From the UHGV virus genome UHGV-1806156: a stretch of 13,526 nucleotides of DNA. The stretch is one strand, 5' to 3'. The translations under genes and the position numbers were made by a program. The DNA comes from a virus. Numbering within the stretch: position 1 is the stretch's first letter; each line of letters opens with the position of its first letter. Below the pieces are notes generated by a model. It made no database searches. It was not told the DNA's origin and was given only the letters and a program-made list of their open reading frames with translations. Below, piece by piece: positions 1-13,526 of the stretch.

Positions 1-98
1 TAAGGGAAAAGCTTAACCCACAAATGAAAGCCTAAAGAGCATGAGCGACTCTTTAGGCAATCTGTGTGGGGAACATCGGAGCAGTATGTGAAGTATGA
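1..98. repeat. Left copy of a 98-bp direct repeat (same as 13429-13526)
   Basis: Positions 1-98 match 13429-13526 base for base except one T/C difference (position 54 vs 13482). The repeat runs to both window edges, so its full extent is unknown. Confidence 0.9.
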
Positions 99-630: not shown

Positions 631-780
631 GTGGAAATTACTGATGCAATAGCGATCATCAACCTGGCTGTACTGTGGTGCGGTGTTGCCTACATAGCCG
701 GAGTGACTGCAATCGACAATCTTGAAGAAAAAATGATAGATAAATACAAAAAGATTGTTGACAATTTGACGAATGTCTGA
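631..780 (+). CDS. Small ORF, 49 aa, GTG start, predicted single transmembrane helix (VEITDAIAIINLAVLWCGVAYIAGVTAIDNLEEKMIDKYKKIVDNLTNV)
   Basis: GGAGG at 621-625 sits 5 nt before GTG 631, stop TGA at 778-780. Hydrophobic N-terminal stretch. Below the 60-aa cutoff of the ORF track. Confidence 0.3.
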   Translation: MEITDAIAIINLAVLWCGVAYIAGVTAIDNLEEKMIDKYKKIVDNLTNV

Positions 781-786
781 TAAAAT
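758..786 (+). promoter_or_regulatory. Sigma70-like promoter candidate (-35 TTGACA 758-763, 17-bp spacer, -10 TAAAAT 781-786), likely driving the operon starting at 913
   Basis: Near-consensus hexamers with 17-bp spacing, about 125 bp upstream of ATG 913. Confidence 0.45.
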
Positions 787-912
787 ATAAAGCATAGGGT
801 AATTCTCATCATAGTGAATTTCCTTTAGTAGACTGGCGGGGGCTTGTCTTAAGTTCCCGTTTCTTTTTAATCATATATCGCACAGGTTAGTGAGCTGACA
901 GGAGATTGAATC

Positions 913-3382: not shown

Positions 3383-3766
3383 ATGAATATTGAAGAAATG
3401 ATAGTTGAATTCGAAGAGGGTGATTTCCTGGAAGAAGGGGAGTTTAGTTACTCCCATTTTAAACAGGCGTTATTTAGCAGCGATGATAAACCACACGTTA
3501 GTGATCTTAACGACGATGATTTATGTCGTTGGGTATGCACCCGCTTAAATGAAGATGGAAAGTATACAGGCCAAAACTTTCCAAATCTCTATTTCAAAGC
3601 ACAAACATTTGAGGAAGGGCAAAGAGTGAAAAACCTGGTCGATAAAATGCTGTCAGCCGGATATTTGCATAAAGAATTATTAAATCCTAAAGCTGAAAGC
3701 AAGCGCCATTATATTTTTGTGTGGACTATTGGCGATAAGTGTCCACTAAGACGCAAAGGCAAATGA
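3383..3766 (+). CDS. Acidic protein, 127 aa; possible tail assembly chaperone by position
   Basis: GAGAGGA (3369-3375) is 7 nt before ATG 3383; the track's ATG 3377 is too close to the RBS. Acidic N-terminus and position two genes upstream of the tape measure gene. Function is positional inference only. Confidence 0.4.
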   Translation: MNIEEMIVEFEEGDFLEEGEFSYSHFKQALFSSDDKPHVSDLNDDDLCRWVCTRLNEDGKYTGQNFPNLYFKAQTFEEGQRVKNLVDKMLSAGYLHKELLNPKAESKRHYIFVWTIGDKCPLRRKGK

Positions 3767-3767
3767 T

Positions 3768-4004
3768 ATGAATACCTACGAAAAGATTTATCAAAAACTG
3801 GTTAAGGACTCCGAAGACACGCCCGAAGGGGTGACAGTAGGTCACCTGCCAGAGGCAGCGAAAGAGGGGGCCACCATTATTAAAAGTGGCTCCCACACAG
3901 AAGGCCTCTCAATCGAAGAGCTGGCGGAGAAATATAATATTGATAAAGAGGCCCTGAAAAGGGCTATTTCATTATCAAAATCTTTAAGACAGGGCGAGGT
4001 ATAA
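3768..4004 (+). CDS. Hypothetical protein, 78 aa, translationally coupled between the acidic protein and the tape measure gene
   Basis: Starts 1 nt after the preceding stop and ends 1 nt before ATG 4006. Confidence 0.45.
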   Translation: MNTYEKIYQKLVKDSEDTPEGVTVGHLPEAAKEGATIIKSGSHTEGLSIEELAEKYNIDKEALKRAISLSKSLRQGEV

Positions 4005-4005
4005 A

Positions 4006-6153
4006 ATGGCAATGAAGGAAGTAGCCAGACTAACAAACGTTATTTACTGGGACTCTGATAAATCCTCCTGGCGAAAAGAAGTTAAACGGCTTGAGGATTA
4101 TAAAAAATCCTGGAAGAAAGCTACCGACGATATAGCTAAAGCTGATTTTAAATCTAATCAGGCTGTGCTCAGAACACAAAGAACACGCGCTAAGGTGGAA
4201 GAGCAGATAGCCAGAGCTCAGAGGAAACAACAGGAAGCACAGAAGAAACAACGTGCTCAGGCTGTCAGCCGTCTGACCGGGGGCAACAATGCCGAACTTA
4301 ACTCTATGCGCAAGTTCTACCAACAACAAGCCAGAGAAGCCGCCAGACAACAAAAACTGTTAGATCGTAGTGTTGGAGATGTTCAGCACAGAAAAGCACG
4401 TGTAGGGGCCAACAGTGCACGAATCAGCAGCATGTTTGATGGCTCCCTGGTTGCTCAGTTCCAGGGGCGCATTCAAAGAGTTAATGCTGATTATGCTAAA
4501 GGGGCTATAAACCTGCAGACCTATAATCAGAGGATGGCCCGACTCAGATCTGAAATGAAGATGGCAACAGCCGAAGCCGGAAAATTCCAGAGCAGACTAG
4601 ACAGAGCTGCGGCCGCAGGCTCCAGGCTGCATGACAACCTGGGGAAACTGAATTCCACACTGGGCAAGATAGCCATTGGCCTTACTGCCGCTGGCTGGGG
4701 TGTTCAGCGTGCTGTTAGTGGTGCTATGGGTAGCCTTGCAGATCGCAACAGTGCTTATTTCGGCTTAATGTCACAGAACAAGGATGATAAATCAAAAACT
4801 GATCAGCAGATGGCTTTTATCAAGAACACAGCCTACACCTACGGGATGGATCAGCGTGAGATGGAAGGCGGCTACATGCGCTTTGCTGCAGCTACCCCCA
4901 CCATGAAGGAATCTGATAAGCAGGCTCTCTTTGAGGCTATGGCTATTAAAGGCCGCTCAGTGGGTGCTACTGGCGAGCAACAGAACAGGGCGCTTGTTGC
5001 GGTCCAACAAATGGCTTCAAAAAATAAAGTCATGGCGGAGGAGCTGCGTGGGCAGCTGGCAGAAGCCTTTGCAGGCTCACAACAGGACTTCCAACAGGCC
5101 GCTATTGATGCCGGAATCATCAAAAATACCCAGGAATTCGATAAAGCCCTTAAAGATGGCAAAATCACCCTGGACAAGCTACTTCCTTCCCTAGTGAAAA
5201 TTTGGGGTGCTGCAAAAGAAACTAAAGCTTTTGCTGAATCCATGAAACAGCCAGAAGTAGCAATGCAGCGCATGAAAAACAGCTTTAACGAGCTGGCGAT
5301 TCAGTTTATGGGTGTTGTGGATCCTGCGGATGGCGTTATTAGCTTATCTGAATCTCTGATCTCCATCTTTGAAGACCTCACCACTGATATGGACGGCAGC
5401 GGGAGCGCGGCAAAACAGTTCGGTGAGGCAGTCGGGTCTGCCATGCGTGAGATCATGTATTGGGTAGGCTTCGCTAAGGGATATATTGAGGTCAAGGCTA
5501 AAGAGTTCGGCATGACCGGATCAGAGGTTGGCGAGCTTATCGGGAAACTGGTAGTCGGCTTAGCTGGTCTGAAAGTTATTACCACACTGCTTTCCCCTCT
5601 AACCGGATTTGTTTCACTTGTCACCCAACTGATTTCTCTGATAGGCAAGATTCCAGGTCTGGGCAATCTCGTTAAGGGTGCTGGCGGGGCAGTCGCTGGA
5701 AGCCCAACAACAGCATTAGCCGCTGGCAGTGCCGCAGGTGTGGGTGTTGGTGTCGCTGGCGCACTAGGCGCTAAGACGGTAGGTGAGAAGTTCAGAGGAT
5801 GGATGCAAAGCAAGGCTGATCAGTTCGGGGAGTGGGCTAAATCTAAAGGCCTGCTTAGCGATGAACAGGACGCTATGACCAAACCGGGGGCCTATAACCA
5901 TAGCTACATCAACAAGGGAGCTTCCTTTAATCCATATCCAACCATTAGCCCTTCACGTCCTACTCCTAGCACTGGTACGGCTATTCAGAATGGCGGATAT
6001 CAACCAGTCCAAGTAAATGTAGCCCCACAAGGTGAGATTTCCGGCAAATGGGAGATAACCATCGATGAGGGGGGAATTGCCAGGGTGATCCAGAAGGAAG
6101 TTAGCGATCAGTTGGATTGGAAAGCCACACAGGAATCTAACCAGCTTTTCTAA
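4006..6153 (+). CDS. Phage tail tape measure protein-like, 715 aa
   Basis: Long Q/R/K/A-rich helical N-terminal region, a central segment that reads like a tape-measure domain (AAATPTMKESDKQALFEAMAIKGRSVGATGEQQNRALVAVQQMASKNKVMAEELRGQLAEAF), and a Gly/Ala-rich hydrophobic block (LAGLKVITTLLSPLTGFVSLVTQLISLIGKIPGLGNLVKGAGGAVAG...). Recognised by eye, not by search. Confidence 0.6.
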   Translation: MAMKEVARLTNVIYWDSDKSSWRKEVKRLEDYKKSWKKATDDIAKADFKSNQAVLRTQRTRAKVEEQIARAQRKQQEAQKKQRAQAVSRLTGGNNAELNSMRKFYQQQAREAARQQKLLDRSVGDVQHRKARVGANSARISSMFDGSLVAQFQGRIQRVNADYAKGAINLQTYNQRMARLRSEMKMATAEAGKFQSRLDRAAAAGSRLHDNLGKLNSTLGKIAIGLTAAGWGVQRAVSGAMGSLADRNSAYFGLMSQNKDDKSKTDQQMAFIKNTAYTYGMDQREMEGGYMRFAAATPTMKESDKQALFEAMAIKGRSVGATGEQQNRALVAVQQMASKNKVMAEELRGQLAEAFAGSQQDFQQAAIDAGIIKNTQEFDKALKDGKITLDKLLPSLVKIWGAAKETKAFAESMKQPEVAMQRMKNSFNELAIQFMGVVDPADGVISLSESLISIFEDLTTDMDGSGSAAKQFGEAVGSAMREIMYWVGFAKGYIEVKAKEFGMTGSEVGELIGKLVVGLAGLKVITTLLSPLTGFVSLVTQLISLIGKIPGLGNLVKGAGGAVAGSPTTALAAGSAAGVGVGVAGALGAKTVGEKFRGWMQSKADQFGEWAKSKGLLSDEQDAMTKPGAYNHSYINKGASFNPYPTISPSRPTPSTGTAIQNGGYQPVQVNVAPQGEISGKWEITIDEGGIARVIQKEVSDQLDWKATQESNQLF

Positions 6154-6204
6154 TATTGTGATCAAAATCAATAAGTTAGCCTGACCGGATAAACTCCAGG
6201 CAAG

Positions 6205-6242
6205 AAAAAAGCCCCTAAGTGTTAACAAAGGGGCTCTTCTCC
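6205..6242. terminator. Hairpin terminator between convergent operons (stem AGCCCCT 6210-6216 / AGGGGCT 6229-6235)
   Basis: 7-bp GC-rich stem with 12-nt loop. On the minus strand it is followed by a run of six T (plus-strand A 6205-6210); on the plus strand by a weaker T-rich tract. Confidence 0.5.
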
Positions 6243-6266
6243 GGTATCCTTTTGATGCGGGGCGAA

Positions 6267-6310
6267 CCTGCTAACAAAAATCAACCTCTCGCGAGACTAA
6301 TGTTAGCAGG
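6267..6310. other. Stem-loop with perfect 10-bp stem (CCTGCTAACA / TGTTAGCAGG) whose 24-nt loop carries TCAACCTCTCGCGAGA
   Basis: Inverted repeat read directly. The loop contains the 10-bp palindrome TCTCGCGAGA and matches the leader motif at 10547 and 11089. Confidence 0.4.
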
Positions 6311-6655
6311 TTGCCGGAAGGTAAGTCAACTCCGGCCTATAAACCTTAAAGCGACTATAAAATCGCCCCGCCAATTGTGATGATCCGACCTTTGAGGCGG
6401 GTCCGGTGCCCAGGGGGGTGCAGTGATGCACAAACCAGGCAACGATAAACAGGCTAACAGTGATAGCGGCGCTCTCTCAGCGCACTAAATCCTAACCAGT
6501 CCGGGAAAGAGGCTGGCTCTATCGACCGCTCATGCACGGGACAATGCATACCTGATAAAGGATTCTCACAAGGGACCAATCGCGAGAAAAAGAAGTGGAA
6601 AGGGGCTGATTTGTGGTGTATCACTACGGCCTCAAAAGAACACTATTGTCTTTTT

Positions 6656-7114: not shown

Positions 7115-7914
7115 TTGTTGATCTCCGTGATGTCATCAAGCAACATGTTGGCCTTATCAATCATCGTTTCGTGGAATTCATTCGACACAACAGACTTATC
7201 ACCTGCGGCAATCTTTCCAGCTGCCTCTCCCTGTGCATATTCCCCGCGATGCTTAGCCCTGGTAGATTTCGTAGCAGCATTGCCAGCGTTACTACCCTCT
7301 TTAGCACTGTTAACAGCACCCTTTTGCTGTGTTTTATTCACCTTCTTACTGTTAGTGAAAACTCCGGCATTTTCGACCATCTTCACCTTGAAGGTGCGGA
7401 ATTCTTCAAAGGTGCAATCGATAGTGATGCAGTCACCGGAGGAAGAGCTACGCTTAACTTCACATTTCGTCATGATGAAGTTCTCAAGGAGTCCGGCATC
7501 TTCACTCACCAGGCTAACCAGCTGGCGCTTGTCTCTCATTTCCATAAGTGCCTGAACAGCGGCAGCAGGGCGCATAGATTCACGGGGATTATCTGGATCA
7601 GTGTTCCGGTCGATGTAGTTCTCTTTCCGGATAATGTGAGGGGAAGAGGTAATAATACCCGTAAAGCTGACAGATTTATCTTTAATGACGGCATGGTCTG
7701 ACATGGTGGTGCCATCTTCTACTGCATAGCTCGACTTTTCGACAGGGAACGAATAACGAACATCAGAGATAGAGTCAAAGAAGATAGCCACATTATCGGT
7801 ATAGTTGAAGCCATCCATTATATTTTTGTTTTGTGAATATCCCCCACACATAACAGTGAATGCGGGAGATCTCGACTCAGCTTGTTTTGCAGCTGTCAGA
7901 GCATCACTAGCCAT
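7111..7914 (-). CDS. Hypothetical protein, 267 aa (start placed at the ATG at 7914)
   Basis: Minus ORF 7111..7941 begins at a GTG; the in-frame ATG at 7914 has GGAGG 10 nt upstream. Normal amino-acid composition, unlike the Cys/Ser/Leu-rich plus-strand ORFs it overlaps. Confidence 0.55.
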   Translation of the reverse strand: MASDALTAAKQAESRSPAFTVMCGGYSQNKNIMDGFNYTDNVAIFFDSISDVRYSFPVEKSSYAVEDGTTMSDHAVIKDKSVSFTGIITSSPHIIRKENYIDRNTDPDNPRESMRPAAAVQALMEMRDKRQLVSLVSEDAGLLENFIMTKCEVKRSSSSGDCITIDCTFEEFRTFKVKMVENAGVFTNSKKVNKTQQKGAVNSAKEGSNAGNAATKSTRAKHRGEYAQGEAAGKIAAGDKSVVSNEFHETMIDKANMLLDDITEINK

Positions 7915-9765: not shown

Positions 9766-10093
9766 TTGATCACCTGCGATTTAAATTAACTCCCCTCAAA
9801 GGGCTCAGGTATAACCTCTCAAACCACGACAGGCTCGGGCCGAAAAGTTATGCCGGAAATCTAAAGGGGGATTGATATAAGGAGAGGGAGATAGCCCCGC
9901 ACCGTCCAAGCGGGGGCTATTCCACATGGGGAAACCAACAACAGTTGGCTGATAGTTCACTGCATGGTTACAGGTTGCTAGAGAGCACTATCACGAAAGG
10001 CACTCCCCCGGATCAGTTCAGGCTGCGGTCACATCAGCGGGGAAATACCTTTCGGGATAGCTACCCACACAGAAAACCCGCAAAAGAAAACTG

Positions 10094-10102
10094 TGTGGAT
10101 AA
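10094..10102 (-). promoter_or_regulatory. DnaA box (TTATCCACA on the minus strand) inside an inverted repeat (CCACACAG 10065-10072 / CTGTGTGG 10091-10098)
   Basis: Exact 9-mer match to the DnaA box consensus, read directly. Confidence 0.35.
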
Positions 10103-10248
10103 CTAGCCCTGTAGGGAGAATAAGGAGAATTAATCGACCACTCTAAGATGATCATGGGTAGTGTTATTTATAAGGCGGCACCGCTACCTGGTCGCCTTTA
10201 CTTTGGAGGAAAATACGGCAAATCACCTTCGCTAAATGATTCACGGTA

Positions 10249-10268
10249 TACTGTATATTATATCAGTA
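10249..10268. promoter_or_regulatory. LexA (SOS) box-like palindrome TACTGTATATTATATCAGTA
   Basis: CTG-N10-CAG architecture with flanking TA and an AT-rich core, as in gammaproteobacterial LexA boxes. Lies in the large intergenic region between the capsid operon and the small-peptide operon. Confidence 0.45.
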
Positions 10269-10546
10269 TTTACTCACATTGTCAACACCCTGATTATATA
10301 AATTCTAATAATTAGCGTAGTAACGGTATTTTCAGACTGCTATCAATCCCATCAATACGTCATCTCATCGCATCTATCATAACTTTTTCATTCGTGATAG
10401 ATATCTTTTGATCAATATCAATGTTTTCCGGGGATTTGCCCGGCTATAGTTCGAATCAAGGAAGGGGAGCATTGATAGAGACACCCAAAGGGGTGACTGA
10501 AAGTCACCTGGCATAGCCAGTGAAAGCACCCAACCGAACAAACAAA

Positions 10547-10564
10547 TCAACTTCTCGCAAAAGG
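10547..10564 (+). promoter_or_regulatory. Conserved leader motif TCAACTTCTCGCAAAAGG, 26 nt upstream of ATG 10573
   Basis: Repeated with the same spacing upstream of ATG 11115 (11089-11107); a third variant sits in the hairpin loop at 6281-6296. Confidence 0.4.
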
Positions 10565-10572
10565 TGATAGTT

Positions 10573-10695
10573 ATGGGTATCAAGAACAGTGCCAGCGCAT
10601 GGCAAAAGGCCAGGTTTCATCACCCACACATTGTTAAGGCAATTGAGGTGGTTGGAGTTTTAGCCCTGATGTTAGCTCTGTGTGTGGAGGTGTGA
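10573..10695 (+). CDS. Small hydrophobic peptide, 40 aa (MGIKNSASAWQKARFHHPHIVKAIEVVGVLALMLALCVEV)
   Basis: AAGGTG RBS before ATG 10573; C-terminal hydrophobic helix. Below the ORF-track cutoff. Confidence 0.35.
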   Translation: MGIKNSASAWQKARFHHPHIVKAIEVVGVLALMLALCVEV

Positions 10696-10696
10696 G

Positions 10697-10777
10697 ATGG
10701 GCAAAGGAGGCAAAGCATTTTTAATAGGTCTGGCTATCCTGGATGTTCTACTAATCATGATTAAGCGGAGTTTATGA
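10697..10777 (+). CDS. Small hydrophobic peptide, 26 aa (MGKGGKAFLIGLAILDVLLIMIKRSL)
   Basis: ATG 10697 starts 1 nt after the previous stop, with AGGTG just upstream. One predicted TM helix and a basic C-terminus. Confidence 0.3.
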   Translation: MGKGGKAFLIGLAILDVLLIMIKRSL

Positions 10778-10796
10778 ACAGCATTGAGAGGAGTTT

Positions 10797-11057
10797 ATGA
10801 CGGGGGCTAAAGATATCAGGAGACTGAGGGAAGAGCTGATAGCTGAAATTAAAACTAAGGCAAAGCAAATGGAGATAGCCGCACAAATGGATGTAGCGGA
10901 ACAGATGTACAAGATGGTTGAGGAGGGAACGCCACGACAGGTTATCGCTAAAACCTTCGGTGTGGGGATCGCCACCGTGCACAGAAGGCTGAAAGCATAT
11001 GCTGACTACCACAATATCGAGAGAAAGGAGGATGGGAGATTCAGGAAAGCTAAATGA
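10797..11057 (+). CDS. Small DNA-binding protein with a Hin/resolvase-type C-terminal HTH, 86 aa, no recombinase catalytic domain
   Basis: GAGAGGAG RBS before ATG 10797. C-terminus EEGTPRQVIAKTFGVGIATVHRRLKA closely matches the Hin invertase HTH; the N-terminus is a short charged helix only. Confidence 0.55.
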   Translation: MTGAKDIRRLREELIAEIKTKAKQMEIAAQMDVAEQMYKMVEEGTPRQVIAKTFGVGIATVHRRLKAYADYHNIERKEDGRFRKAK

Positions 11058-11088
11058 TGTAAACGGTCCAACAGGTTACTAACTTAAT

Positions 11089-11107
11089 TCAACTTCTCGC
11101 AAAGGGG
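11089..11107 (+). promoter_or_regulatory. Second copy of the leader motif (TCAACTTCTCGCAAAGGGG), 26 nt upstream of ATG 11115
   Basis: 15/15 identity with the copy at 10547 over TCAACTTCTCGCAAA, same distance to the start codon. Confidence 0.4.
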
Positions 11108-11114
11108 TACCACT

Positions 11115-11702
11115 ATGAACATTAAAACTATCATTGCAGCCCTCACCATTGCCTTTAGTGCCAACACCGCAGCTATTGATGTAGGGGCCGTAAAAGATGC
11201 ATCTTGTGCTGATAAACTGGCGGCACTTGATGCGGGATTCGATGCACCCCAGGGCTATCAAATGGGGCTATCTCTTAAAAATATTATTCTCCCCATGGAA
11301 TCTGGCGCTTATGTATACGGAGCGATAGGAAAACTGGAGAAGCCGGAAATTGACCTGCAGGGTGTGAGAGCGAAGATCACTAAAAGAAATGAAAGCCTTT
11401 GTGATGTAGCTGAAATAGCTTTCATGTCAGACGATGAAAAATCTATTTTAGTCTTTTGCAAAGATAGCGATGATAATGATCGCTTCTTTAAGATCACCCA
11501 CAACAGGCCAATCTCTTTCTACTCTAATGCTACTATGGGCGCGGGTATGCAGTGGCTGAAGAGAGCTAAATTAACTGAGATCGACATTGAAAAAGAGGCC
11601 AATGCAGGCAGTTATGGATTCTGGAAAGGCTGGACTAAATACACGTTCCAACAATGCGGCATCGATAGTCAGGCCTACGACAACGGATTTTGGTTTTTCT
11701 AA
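11115..11702 (+). CDS. Secreted or outer-membrane protein with N-terminal signal peptide, 195 aa
   Basis: N-terminus MNIKTIIAALTIAFSANTAA has the basic/hydrophobic/A-x-A shape of a Sec signal peptide. C-terminus ends in aromatics (GFWFF), as many outer-membrane beta-barrels do. No family recognised. Confidence 0.55.
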   Translation: MNIKTIIAALTIAFSANTAAIDVGAVKDASCADKLAALDAGFDAPQGYQMGLSLKNIILPMESGAYVYGAIGKLEKPEIDLQGVRAKITKRNESLCDVAEIAFMSDDEKSILVFCKDSDDNDRFFKITHNRPISFYSNATMGAGMQWLKRAKLTEIDIEKEANAGSYGFWKGWTKYTFQQCGIDSQAYDNGFWFF

Positions 11703-11722: not shown

Positions 11723-11750
11723 AGGGGGCCATCACGGCCCCTTTTTATTT
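11723..11750 (+). terminator. Rho-independent terminator after the signal-peptide gene
   Basis: GC-rich stem GGGGGCC (11724-11730) / GGCCCC (11736-11741) with 5-nt loop, followed by TTTTTATTT. Confidence 0.55.
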
Positions 11751-11800: not shown

Positions 11801-13063
11801 TTAATCCGTTTTATGCCACAACCGCCCGGTTGACAGAGTAAGATAGAGTGTGTAACCCTCTTTCGTAATACCAATAAAATCAATAGTTTAGCTCAATTGG
11901 CCTTTTCTCTATTTTTGTCAAATTTAACATACCCTCAAAAACTGCAAAATCTGGCTGCAAGATTATCTGCAGCTGGATTTCTTGCGCCTCAATTTGTGGT
12001 ATCACCCTGACTAGTTTGTGCATAAATTGAACAGTTTTTAACATTTCCTCCTCACCTGGTAACCACACAAAAAGCTAAAAACGAGGCACAGATAATCTTA
12101 GAGGCCTGTTTTCTTGTTATCACTCTGGTAACGTCGTAGAAGTGATTTTGATGAAAGATGACCTACCCTATTACACCCCCATTTTTTGTTATCACAATTG
12201 CATCCTGTGCGGTGTATGGCTATGTGCTGAAAGCGGTCTTATGTGTGGGTGTCAGAAATATCCATTAGCGGTATTAATACCCGTCGGAGATTCGTCTGAG
12301 GTGCCAGGCAGGCGCTCCCCCACCTCCCTTTTTTCTTCTAACAATTCTCAAATATCACACCACTGCCCACCACGTTGCTATTATGTTAATTCTTAAGCTT
12401 TGCTGTATGTTGTGCACATTATTTATTCAGGTGGCTGTACGTAAATTCTGTGCCCACTGATCATGATTTTTAAATCAGATTTTGTAGTGCGCTTTATTAG
12501 TGTAGATAAGATCTATTATGTTAAATGCATCTCTCTCAACACTTAAAATCAATGACTTAGAGGTTAGGATGCACTAACACCCCACACAGCACATTAGACA
12601 TATAGATGTCTATACCCCACATTTTTGATTGTTTTGTAGTCATTCCCCTGATCATTTAACCAGTATAGTTTGCTCCCTGCAGACCACAAAATCGGAATTT
12701 ACATCTGATTAACATAATCTGTTAGCATGATCACCATTACCCACACAACAATAACCACATGTAAGCCTCTTCAGGCAATTTATCGGCGTGTTGGTGTGAA
12801 CAGTCTTTCATGTTCTTTATGTATTCATTGTCCTGTGTGAGGGAAGGATGGACTGCCCCAGGGGCCATACTTATGATGCCCGGTCAACATACCTGTCGAT
12901 AAAATCAAAGGGTGTTGATCTGCATATTTCCCACACATGAGAGGAAATCAAAGCAAAGAGAGAGGAGAGAGGTTTGTTAGTCAAAATAGGTCAATAAGGG
13001 TGTATTTCCACACAGACATGATGAGATAACCTGTCGGTATTTCCTACAACTCTTGCACATACC

Positions 13064-13341
13064 CCGGAAGATTTTTCCGGTGTCTCCCACCTGTGAAGAA
13101 TTTTCACACCTGTAAATCCATACAGCACGGTAAAAACTACCGCACCACCTGTGAAAATATTTTACTACTCCCTTTAGTCATACCCCTTTCAGTCATACTC
13201 AGGCACCACACCCCGGTAAATATTTCCCTACCACCCCGGAGAATTTCTCCGGTGTCCAAGCTGTATCCAATACATACCCCGGAAAATTTCTCCGCACTAC
13301 TACGGAAGATTTCTCCGGTGTACCCCGGAAGATTTCTCCGA
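13064..13341. repeat. Iteron-like array of at least 8 copies of a 17-bp quasi-palindrome (consensus about CCGGARRATTTCTCCGG)
   Basis: Copies at 13064-13080, 13236-13252 (perfect palindrome CCGGAGAATTTCTCCGG), 13279-13295, 13302-13318 and 13325-13341, the last three spaced exactly 23 bp apart. Related variants at about 13094-13108, 13150-13164 and 13214-13226. Confidence 0.6.
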
Positions 13342-13428
13342 CTAATAAATAAAGTAATAGACCACACAATAGATCCCCCCTAACCCCCAAGGGGAATGGG
13401 GAGGGATCAGAGAGTGGGGAAGGTTTTC

Positions 13429-13526
13429 TAAGGGAAAAGCTTAACCCACAAATGAAAGCCTAAAGAGCATGAGCGACTCTTCAGGCAATCTGTGTGGGGA
13501 ACATCGGAGCAGTATGTGAAGTATGA
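13429..13526. repeat. Right copy of the 98-bp direct repeat
   Basis: Matches 1-98 with one mismatch (C at 13482 vs T at 54). Confidence 0.9.

Follow-up and report, generated by a model that had tools for sequence, protein, structure and literature searches.

Small antisense RNAs that act on their own mobile element are exemplified by c4 of P1/P7 and CI of P4. Each is a short RNA with an exposed sequence complementary to short repeats in the mRNA of the element that encodes it, at least one target lies at a ribosome-binding site (RBS), and several cistrons are placed under one RNA. Both c4 and CI are cut out of the transcript in which their targets lie. Enterobacterial trans-acting small RNAs such as RybB, OmrA/B and DicF, the last encoded by a prophage, are transcribed from a sigma-70 promoter and start with a single-stranded 5′ seed of ~12 nt; a variable body follows, and a Rho-independent terminator with a U tail closes the RNA. 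Their seed is conserved above the body, and their targets lie in the 30S footprint beside the Shine–Dalgarno sequence. In the type I toxin–antitoxin pairs TisB/IstR-1, ShoB/OhsC and ZorO/OrzO, the regulated product is a small hydrophobic peptide. Short repeats near gene starts are also found in mycobacteriophages: the Cluster K start-associated sequences and Cluster A stoperators are asymmetric intergenic repeats of 12–13 nt in one orientation, with 10–30 copies per genome, and stoperators are bound by a repressor protein (L5 gp71).

The locus described here lies in a window of 13,526 nt, the whole stretch of DNA analysed (UHGV virus genome UHGV-1806156). A small RNA (sRNA) predicted from it resembles phage and plasmid antisense regulators (P1 c4, P4 CI and type I antitoxins) in its working principle and would share with c4 and CI the kind of target described above; as with P4, a plasmid state is possible for the present element, which has the appearance of a phage satellite. 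It differs from c4 and CI in that the predicted RNA comes from the opposite strand of a distant locus with its own promoter, and carries its predicted seed at the 5′ end rather than in hairpin loops. Its predicted layout follows that of RybB, OmrA/B and DicF, to which it is non-homologous, and its predicted targets lie on the same plasmid rather than in chromosomal regulons. One of them encodes a 40-aa peptide with a hydrophobic C-terminal helix, with the sRNA predicted to act in the 5′ leader as in the type I systems, and a second small hydrophobic ORF follows that gene. Unlike in those systems, the RNA gene lies apart from the peptide gene, and an unrelated cargo gene is also a predicted target. 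In contrast with the mycobacteriophage repeats, only three copies are present, one of them within an opposite-strand promoter–terminator unit.

Rfam yielded no match at gathering score. The best match, ctRNA_p42d (23.6 bits against a threshold of 50), covers only the terminator hairpin, and the best antitoxin match, ohsC (18 bits against a threshold of 50), spans the terminator-containing 3′ part (6202–6275) and not the seed. The Rfam C4 family is absent even at E ≤ 10.

Three copies of a conserved 12-nt core

The original prediction described an identical 15-nt motif in two leaders, 26 nt before an ATG and running into the RBS, and this description is exact in the window. The motif, TCAACTTCTCGCAAA, occurs at 10547–10561 and 11089–11103 on the plus strand, each copy starts 26 nt from its ATG (10573 and 11115), and a Shine–Dalgarno sequence begins straight after both. 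A third variant, TCAACCTCTCGCGAG at 6281–6295, has three mismatches to the 15-mer and one to its 12-nt core, and is placed in the loop of a 12-bp inverted repeat with arms at 6265–6276 and 6301–6312. The copies and the surrounding genes are:

10547–10558, plus strand: motif copy 1 with core TCAACTTCTCGC, a predicted target site of the sRNA in the leader 5′ of the 40-aa peptide ORF
10573–10695, plus strand: predicted target gene 1; its 40-aa product has a transmembrane helix at the C terminus (MGIKNSASAWQKARFHHPHIVKAIEVVGVLALMLALCVEV) and is conserved in all lineages
10697–10777, plus strand: another small hydrophobic ORF (26 aa), variable among relatives and missing in some
10797–11057, plus strand: 86-aa Hin-type helix-turn-helix (HTH) protein in the same operon, between both motif copies
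11089–11100, plus strand: motif copy 2 with core TCAACTTCTCGC, the other predicted target site of the sRNA, within the 58 nt that separate the HTH stop from the cargo ATG at 11115
11115–11702, plus strand: predicted target gene 2, the variable cargo; in the window a 195-aa protein with a signal peptide
6281–6292, minus strand: motif copy 3; the minus strand reads GCGAGAGGTTGA, the predicted 5′ seed of an antisense sRNA

The core of copy 1 ends 15 nt ahead of its ATG, abutting the Shine–Dalgarno sequence GGTG, and copy 2 occupies an intra-operon position within the 58-nt intercistronic gap. On the minus strand, copy 3 reads GCGAGAGGUUGA, the antisense of copies 1 and 2, a relationship that the original prediction missed.

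Within the window, the repeat statistic alone is weak evidence for a motif. An exact 15-nt direct repeat arises somewhere in 12% of Markov-1 random sequences of window size, a second and apparently meaningless 15-nt repeat is present at 3706/7815, and a match with three mismatches is at chance level (0.46 expected). Position and phylogeny across relatives make the signal strong. The relatives compared were ~25 related 13–14 kb E. coli plasmid-like elements, and exactly three copies of the 12-nt core, NCAACYTCTCGC, are present per unit in every one of them, in the same three places on one strand, with none on the other strand. Absence from related loci had been named as grounds for abandoning the motif; it was found in all relatives examined.

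Across 35 distinct contexts, the 12-nt core is the only near-invariant block, and each flanking column holds two to four different bases. The identical spacing to the ATG, claimed from the two 26-nt distances in the window, does not extend to the relatives, where the core-to-ATG distance is 25–29 nt. Because only the core is near invariant and the spacing varies, the functional unit is the 12-mer and not the 15-mer. The core of copy 1 is invariant (12 distinct contexts), and that of copy 2 is conserved (17 distinct contexts), with a sole variant, ACAACCTCTCGC, in the L025 lineage. The minus-strand core of copy 3 is found in all relatives as GCGAGAGGTTGA or GCGAGAAGTTGA, or as GCGAGAGGTTAT in the distant L027. 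With a single mismatch to the core and a counterpart in every relative examined, the 6281 variant was rightly assigned to the same motif set. Both leader targets keep their Shine–Dalgarno adjacency although their flanks differ among relatives, and this fixed placement fits an sRNA, since an RBS-directed RNA needs it.

Variation within the E. coli relatives is confined to core position 6, where a G seed is found with U or C in the targets, and an A seed with U only. The only C-bearing target (L025/L026, copy 2) co-occurs with a G seed. All combinations seen (G:U, G:C and A:U) are pairable, in a thin covariation sample with one variable position. The L027 seed differs at two more positions, and the L027 contig lacks the target region for comparison; searches with the L027-type seed in IMG/VR and the L027 capsid in PLSDB found no further sequences of this type. 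The sRNA model predicts that L027 leaders would carry AUAACCUCUCGC, or at least AACCUCUCGC, beside their Shine–Dalgarno sequences.

A predicted sRNA locus on the minus strand

Because copy 3 lies between a conserved promoter and a terminator, the likely binding partner of the leader copies is the element's own RNA rather than a protein. The locus comprises:

6300–6329, minus strand: predicted sigma-70 promoter of the sRNA, from promoter scan and lineage conservation
6203–6293, minus strand: predicted sRNA with 5′ seed, variable body, and terminator with U tail, proposed from the promoter/seed/terminator layout
6203–6235, minus strand: intrinsic terminator in minus-strand orientation, stem AGCCCCT (6235–6229)/AGGGGCT (6216–6210), then TTTTTTCTT
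6265–6312, no strand assigned: 12-bp inverted repeat AACCTGCTAACA/TGTTAGCAGGTT, which brackets the −10 box and the seed

The predicted promoter is composed of a −35 TTGACT (6329–6324), an 18-nt spacer and an extended −10 with TG (6308–6307) and TAACAT (6305–6300), and the seed starts at the eighth base past the −10. It was called by the scan and is among only four TG-bearing promoter-like matches in the element. As promoter-like matches are no commoner in the window (22 found) than in shuffled sequence (24.5 expected), the case for this promoter depends entirely on conservation. Downstream of the seed, the minus strand carries a GC-rich hairpin and then T6, and 11 of the 12 sub-threshold Rfam terminator-type matches lie on that strand. 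At the level of sequence, promoter and Rho-independent terminator point to an independent transcription unit; no small ORF downstream of copy 3, on either strand, is kept between lineages.

Four lineages whose surroundings are otherwise unalignable (window type, L013, L029 and L027) keep the promoter–seed–terminator layout in register, and L027 among them has a protein identity of only 40–57%. The scan independently called an L027 promoter (TTGACT-16-TAGTAT with TG); the L013/L029 type has only a poor −10 (TCACAC or CACACT). Equivalent but different terminator hairpins are present in L013, L029 and L027: the loops are unrelated among the three E. coli lineages, and L027 has a hairpin of its own. 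Between the window and L027, seed and terminator are kept and the RNA body has diverged. Fifteen window-type elements show zero variable columns in the −35, −10, seed and terminator stem, and the few differences inside the sRNA region fall between these parts. The predicted sRNA would be ~89 nt in the window and ~55–60 nt in the L013/L029 type.

The duplex of the predicted seed with copy 1 has an energy of −26.2 kcal/mol for a 25-nt seed and −23.1 kcal/mol for a 17-nt seed; the corresponding values for copy 2 are −27.4 and −20.7 kcal/mol. When the element was scanned with RNAduplex, the two best non-self targets were copies 1 and 2, over a background of −11.1 ± 3.1 kcal/mol. This complementarity is true by construction, because three direct copies exist. 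Features generally looked for in an sRNA are present, namely RBS-adjacent seed complementarity of 12–15 bp in both leaders and a seed that is conserved above the RNA body. Folding of the two leaders gave z = −0.16 and +1.3, which corresponds to no significant structure; the motif is therefore not displayed in a loop in either leader, a possibility raised with the original prediction.

The inverted repeat around copy 3 has three compensatory pairs between the window and L027, and is absent from the L013/L029 type. Such covariation suggests that both arms are spanned by one transcript or by a DNA-binding dimer; the repeat is either a palindromic operator that serves the sRNA promoter or an RNA hairpin formed when transcripts are longer or read through. 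It counts against the sRNA reading that a transcript starting at 6293 would hold only one arm. Furthermore, the conserved TTGACT sits in a hairpin loop closed by stems that differ between lineages, and from this position it could have another role; the terminator could merely stop read-through from the minus-strand capsid/neck operon. A proposal that AAGTCAACTC (GAGTTGAC on the minus strand) acts as a second, hairpin-loop seed was weakened, because L027 keeps TTGACT but has CAC for the flanking GAG.

Proposed regulation of the peptide and cargo genes

It is proposed, with moderate confidence, that the element encodes a trans-acting sRNA of ~60–90 nt whose 5′ seed would pair beside the RBSs of the 40-aa membrane-peptide gene and the cargo gene. 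The tape-measure and capsid/neck operons converge, and the sRNA gene would lie on the minus strand of the gap that separates them, 4.2–4.8 kb from its targets. Synthesis would begin at ~6293/6292 from the sigma-70 promoter and end at the intrinsic terminator at ~6204, and given this predicted 5′ end the RNA would begin with GCGAGAGGUUGA. In vivo, the 5′ seed would form 12–15 bp with UCAACUUCUCGC in both leaders, in each case at −26 to −15 relative to the start codon of the 40-aa peptide or cargo gene. Such RBS-adjacent pairing would most likely prevent 30S binding and thereby repress translation. Repression is the more likely direction of regulation; activation, by freeing the Shine–Dalgarno sequence from the pyrimidine-rich motif, is less likely.

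The second predicted target occupies a cassette hot spot in which the cargo is frequently swapped. Comparison of alternative cargo genes puts the homology break exactly at the ATG behind copy 2, and an intrinsic terminator lies downstream of the gene at 11723–11743. With a docking site confined to a self-contained 12-mer, the same control would extend to whichever cargo gene is placed downstream of copy 2. Pfam and PADLOC searches found nothing for the peptides and cargo proteins, and the 40-aa peptide in particular has no Pfam match.

A broader joint reading is possible but doubtful, and describes a plasmid-borne satellite-like element of a kind not described before, with a minimal sRNA, a portable 12-mer adapter and release by a sponge. 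The minimal sRNA, a 12-nt 5′ seed plus terminator at the junction of two convergent structural operons, would jointly control a membrane peptide resembling a toxin or holin and a hypervariable cargo slot for exclusion or defence, with the 12-mer serving as a portable adapter for newly acquired cargo genes. Read-through of the tape-measure (late) operon, perfectly complementary to the sRNA, would act as the sponge and free both targets once the structural genes switch on.

Alternative explanations and distribution

Three identical 12-bp sites are equally expected from a sequence-specific DNA- or RNA-binding protein. A DNA-based alternative, which is unlikely, takes the 12-mer as an asymmetric operator for an element protein such as the 86-aa Hin-type HTH protein, comparable to the L5 stoperators: the protein would stop elongating RNA polymerase when bound in the leaders, and when bound at 6281–6292 would repress the minus-strand promoter at +1. 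Copy 3 does overlap the predicted promoter start, a classical operator position, and the three identical sites share a single orientation relative to transcription. The operon protein belongs to Pfam HTH_7, with the Hin DNA-binding domain (1HCR, E = 3.5e-4) as its closest solved relative. Hin/resolvase-type HTH domains bind a half-site of ~12–13 bp as monomers, and the recognition helix GIATVxRRL is conserved even in a lineage with 59% identity, which also retains the motif. However, an operator leaves unexplained the fixed Shine–Dalgarno-adjacent position of the leader copies, the opposite-strand terminator after copy 3 in four lineages, and the restriction of variation to one wobble-compatible position. 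An equally good or better candidate site for a Hin-like HTH is provided by the TGATAG/CTATCA repeats, which resemble the Hin TGATAA half-site and have 10 of their 15 copies at 9950–11260, around the operon control region. It is decidedly unlikely that an element, host or helper-phage protein recognises UCAACYUCUCGC in RNA, in the leaders and in the 6281 hairpin loop, which would lie in the 3′ end of the tape-measure operon transcript, and functions in translational repression or RNA processing. The sense-transcribed strand carries all three copies, two of them directly 5′ of a Shine–Dalgarno sequence, and the window-type copy 3 occupies the loop of a 12-bp hairpin that covaries in L027. Against this, the element encodes no recognisable RNA-binding protein, copy 3 of the L013/L029 type is outside any hairpin loop, copies 1 and 2 are in unstructured leaders, and the conserved minus-strand promoter and terminator around copy 3 would have no explanation. 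The conserved copies bear out the shared cis element of the original prediction, for which an RNA-binding target or translational operator was a reasonable option.

The motif might be a duplicated translation-initiation leader (an enhancer or standby site) that needs no dedicated trans factor and is kept for good expression, with the 6281 copy as a relic of a lost cassette. That two copies run directly into a Shine–Dalgarno sequence, that copy 1 lies in a CA-rich, unstructured leader and that the cargo position is a cassette hot spot agree with this reading. It is nevertheless very improbable: a relic would not stay invariant at 6281 in four lineages with fully diverged flanks, and enhancers tolerate substitutions while this core does not vary. 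In addition, the best duplex of the motif with E. coli 16S rRNA (−13.5 kcal/mol) is no better than those of shuffled motifs (−12.3 ± 1.9 kcal/mol), and an enhancer of the T7 gene 10 epsilon type was rejected because 16S rRNA complementarity is at the shuffled level. Least probable of all is that the motif serves a non-host or helper-phage RNA polymerase as its promoter, that it is a late-promoter or antitermination element, or that cargo cassettes are exchanged at it by site-specific crossover. Promoters of single-subunit RNA polymerases are compact elements directly upstream of short leaders, which this 12–15 nt element may resemble, and the homology break at the cargo ATG would suit a crossover site. 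The late promoter or antitermination element of the original prediction is not supported, as no sigma-70-like match lies at or beside 10547 or 11089 on either strand and copy 2 is inside an operon. Also against this group of readings, the phage collections show no DNA-level similarity, the capsid protein reaches only ~24% identity, and neither the motif locus nor the sRNA locus was found in IMG/VR. As for crossover, the element encodes no recombinase catalytic domain, 12 bp is too short to anchor homologous exchange, and copy 1 borders no variable cassette.

Several known signals were compared with the motif by eye. Neither the CTCGC half, which is invariant, nor TTCAA in copy 2 agrees with the IHF consensus (WATCAANNNNTTR), a likeness to lambda boxA/nut appears only when the sequence is read backwards, and RfaH ops, CsrA GGA sites and T7-like promoters gave no convincing fit.

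The element family comprises 13–14 kb plasmid-like elements with phage capsid and tail genes. Phage collections hold no close relative of the family, and no capsid-protein relatives were found in IMG/VR or the GTDB species representatives. The exact motif has six matches in IMG/VR, all in unrelated contexts and attributable to chance, and the promoter-plus-seed DNA pattern gave one chance match in GTDB genomes, inside a Bacteroidetes coding sequence. Literature searches on the element and the motif strings returned nothing relevant and no description of the family. A metagenome scan for relatives recovered only members of the same E. coli family. If confirmed, the arrangement would be a very compact circuit of one short RNA and two 12-nt docking sites, would show joint control of a membrane peptide and a rapidly exchanged cargo gene, and would extend the antisense-RNA regulators beyond the known families. 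In practical terms the benefit is modest yet concrete, in that the 12-mer and the sRNA locus together are a good marker for further members of the element family.

A conserved core in two leaders and at a third site

The 15-mer TCAACTTCTCGCAAA occurs exactly at positions 10547 (copy 1) and 11089 (copy 2), in both cases with a Shine–Dalgarno sequence directly after it and an ATG 26 nt on, as the original prediction had described. An exact 15-nt repeat alone is unimpressive, because 12% of Markov-1 random sequences of the window's length hold one, and the proposed third variant at 6281 (copy 3) has three mismatches to the 15-mer, which is chance level. A second exact 15-nt direct repeat, CCATTATATTTTTGT at 3706–3720 and 7815–7829, equals the reported motif in length and may be due to chance.

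Comparative data from approximately 25 related elements raise the motif's standing. The 12-nt core, NCAACYTCTCGC, is present in exactly three copies per unit, on one strand only and with none on the opposite strand, at the following sites.

4006–6153, plus strand: tape measure protein
70–130 nt past the tape-measure stop codon (across relatives): motif copy
10573–11702, plus strand: short operon
Leader ahead of the operon's 40-aa peptide gene: motif copy
Leader ahead of the operon's last gene: motif copy

In a motif-anchored alignment of 35 distinct contexts, the core alone is near invariant (2 1 1 1 1 2 1 1 1 1 1 1 bases per column), and every flanking column holds 2–4 bases. The core is conserved even in L013, a relative whose flanks cannot be aligned, and is also kept in L024/L025, a lineage with 82% identity in the capsid and 59% in the HTH protein. 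The original observation is confirmed and refined to a 12-nt core in three copies, retained at homologous loci in every unit; copy 3 stands as a copy of this core, not of the 15-mer. The identical spacing holds within the window, but ranges from 25 to 29 nt over relatives, such that 26 nt is not fixed. The original interpretation of the motif is partly supported.

The gene downstream of copy 1 encodes a conserved 40-aa peptide that has a hydrophobic helix at its C-terminus; after it come another small hydrophobic ORF and the gene for an 86-aa Hin-type HTH protein. Copy 2 lies within a 58-nt gap ahead of the last gene, a cassette hot spot (window 11115–11702) with at least six alternatives (173, 179, 186, 195, 225 and 236/239 aa). 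These cargo alternatives are membrane or secreted proteins with no match in Pfam or PADLOC, and several have a common C-terminal domain (…HAWLWNH…WCKD..GNDRW…). Homology between elements at the slot ends exactly at the ATG, and an intrinsic terminator (11723–11743) follows the cargo gene.

A repeat of approximately 50 nt at 3815–3864 and 10477–10526 (80% identical) forms two hairpins, and in one of them a compensatory change is seen (CTGCC/GGCAG vs CTGGC/GCCAG). Its leader copy (10477–10526) is a clean 48-nt presence/absence polymorphism in relatives, between CACCCAA repeats; the second falls within the variable central part of a 78-aa ORF, which is 61 aa long in relatives.

The minus-strand locus at copy 3

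Neither strand has a conserved ORF downstream of copy 3. Read from the minus strand, copy 3 is GCGAGAGGTTGA (the predicted seed), exactly antisense to the core if one G:U pair is allowed, and a promoter scan placed two boxes ahead of it.

6329–6324, minus strand: −35 box TTGACT, 18-nt spacer to the −10 region
6308–6300, minus strand: extended −10, TG + TAACAT

The antisense core starts at the eighth base past the −10, the expected transcription start. The TG of an extended −10 is found in only four promoter-like matches element-wide, and the remaining three are the element's strongest promoters. The argument for this promoter is comparative only, because promoter-like matches are no commoner in the element than in shuffled sequence. 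On the same strand, 44 bases past the core, a hairpin (AGCCCCT/AGGGGCT) followed by TTTTTTCTT forms a predicted terminator; 11 of the 12 sub-threshold Rfam matches in the region are to terminator-type models on the minus strand.

The promoter–seed–terminator layout repeats in four lineages whose surrounding sequence is otherwise unrelated.

Promoter, seed and terminator in four lineages (−35 box; −10 region; seed; downstream sequence)
Window type: TTGACT; cTGcTAACAT; GCGAGAGGTTGA; variable body, then AGCCCCT/AGGGGCT hairpin and T-run
L013: TTGACT; gTGaTCACAC; GCGAGAAGTTGA; directly a different GC-rich hairpin and T-run
L029: TTGACT; aTGaTCACAC; GCGAGAAGTTGA; directly a third hairpin and T-run
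L027: TTGACT; cTGtTAGTAT; GCGAGAGGTTAT; diverged body, then AAGAAGCCCCC...GGGGGCTTTTTATTT

From −35 box through seed, all four keep register apart from a 2-nt indel in the spacer. Across 15 window-type elements, the −35, −10, seed and terminator stem contain zero variable columns. The promoter of L027, a metagenomic relative with a protein identity of only 40–57%, was called independently by the scan; the L013/L029 type has a weak −10. L013 (4595–4741), like L014 and L029, carries a 49-aa lysine/arginine-rich ORF between the predicted sRNA gene and the neck gene, with a promoter-like site of its own (TTGTCT-17-TATAAT); this ORF is missing from the window type.

A hairpin with a stem that varies by lineage holds the TTGACT box in its loop, and the box was considered as a possible second antisense loop. 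L027 retains TTGACT but changes the adjacent GAG to CAC, favouring a promoter. In the window type, a 12-bp inverted repeat brackets the −10 box and seed; it shows three compensatory changes in L027 and is absent in L013/L029. It could either be folded by a longer transcript (read-through from either side) or serve as a palindromic operator of the predicted sRNA promoter.

The surrounding 440-nt gap between convergent operons (6200–6640) is conserved above the adjoining coding ends in 15 elements, and several blocks persist in the distant L027, among them CCCGCCTCAAAGGTC and TTTATAGTCG, the latter with a TATAGT −10-like box. Besides the predicted short sRNA, the gap may contain a longer RNA, a further promoter or a packaging site. 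The minus strand at 6580–6600 carries CACTTCTTTTTCTCGCGA, which is similar to the sense motif. Its potential pairing with the predicted seed (−21 to −23 kcal/mol) might hide the seed in transcripts that read through from the neck operon.

Predicted pairing and alternative readings

On balance, though by a modest degree, we favour a reading in which the element encodes a trans-acting antisense sRNA and the two leader copies are its target sites. The predicted minus-strand RNA would start with the antisense core, end at the terminator and pair with both leaders. When the whole element was scanned with RNAduplex using the first 25 nt of this RNA, the best plus-strand sites besides its own template were copy 2 (−27.4 kcal/mol) and copy 1 (−26.2 kcal/mol), against a background of −11.1 ± 3.1, a ranking that follows from the repeat itself. 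The 17-nt seed gave −20.7 at copy 2, −23.1 at copy 1 and −17.2 at the next-best site. The energies at copies 1 and 2 are within the range of working sRNA–mRNA pairs. At the sole variable core position, a seed G is found opposite target U or C and a seed A opposite U only; the single C-bearing target (copy 2 of the relatives L025/L026) is in elements with a G seed. This variation is as the putative pairing predicts.

Counted from the start codon, the duplex would span −26 to −15, within the 30S footprint, and repressed initiation would therefore be the most likely outcome. Activation, in which pairing would free the Shine–Dalgarno sequence, is made less likely by the leaders themselves: folding them for a motif-displaying loop, as had been proposed, gave no significant structure (z = −0.16 and +1.3). 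The same lack of structure, together with the L013 layout, does not fit an operator for an RNA-binding protein, an option in the original prediction that does agree with the sense-strand orientation and with the motif's display in the hairpin loop at 6281.

An asymmetric 12-bp DNA operator for the Hin-type HTH protein would also yield three identical sites, but it leaves unexplained the fixed position beside the Shine–Dalgarno sequence, the opposite-strand terminator and the wobble-compatible variation. TGATAG/CTATCA, which resembles a Hin half-site, is a better candidate operator for this protein. It occurs 15 times in the element (approximately 6.6 expected), 10 of them in the 1.3-kb control region at 9950–11260. 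In the peptide gene, one separates the Shine–Dalgarno sequence from the ATG, and at 10408 there is a palindrome, TTGATCAATATCAA. A recombination site is unlikely, as the element has no recombinase, copy 1 adjoins no cassette and homologous exchange needs an anchor longer than 12 bp. An rRNA-complementary enhancer was rejected after a 16S rRNA complementarity test, and a promoter at the motif, proposed earlier as a late promoter, was rejected when the promoter scan gave no sigma-70-like match there.

The mechanism predicted for the sRNA matches phage and plasmid antisense regulators and enterobacterial 5′-seed sRNAs. The nearest analogies are P1 c4 and P4 CI, which act on short repeated targets in the same element's mRNA, a ribosome-binding site among them; type I antitoxin RNAs, with a small hydrophobic peptide as target, are also close. 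Unlike those systems, the predicted RNA would be made from a separate promoter, and its locus lies on the opposite strand, 4.2–4.8 kb away from the targets. It is not a member of these families, and no Rfam model came near its gathering score at the locus. The prediction is clear-cut and open to direct testing; the satellite-like elements that carry the locus form an uncharacterised family.

The element and its relatives

The element is complete and circular (13,428 bp), with window positions 1–98 recurring at 13429–13526. It encodes a replication initiator of the phage O/HTH_36 type and, on the minus strand, neck/tail-completion, Dit-like and major capsid proteins and a small protein upstream of the capsid. 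No terminase, portal, integrase or lysis gene was recognisable. DNA matches are few and confined to E. coli plasmids of 13.3–13.7 kb, found in 7 of the 5,426 complete E. coli genomes and in one case assembled as a trimer; the phage collection gave no match at the DNA level. Homologues of the HTH, capsid and neck proteins are nearly all from E. coli (at least 82% identity), and the capsid protein is only ~24% identical to those of rV5-like phages. The literature searched made no mention of the plasmid family or the motif strings. The element looks like an undescribed plasmid-borne phage satellite.

The relative L002 (NZ_CP043822.1, 39,610 bp) was deposited as a 39.6-kb plasmid of three tandem, slightly differing 13.2-kb units, which could be a true multimer/concatemer or an assembly artefact. 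At 13060–13349, within a 1.8-kb non-coding stretch after the cargo gene, at least five iteron-like repeats of ~23–29 nt (TACCCCGGAAGATTTCTCCGGTGT) probably form the origin of replication to which the O-like initiator binds. A 62-nt repeat at 744–805 (plus strand) and 10238–10299 (minus strand) is 71% identical in opposite orientations, and each copy contains a near-consensus extended −10 promoter.

758–786, plus strand: TTGACA-17-TAAAAT, extended −10
10285–10257, minus strand: TTGACA-17-TATAAT, extended −10

This arrangement suggests common control of two operons, the early/tail one on the plus strand and the capsid one on the minus strand.
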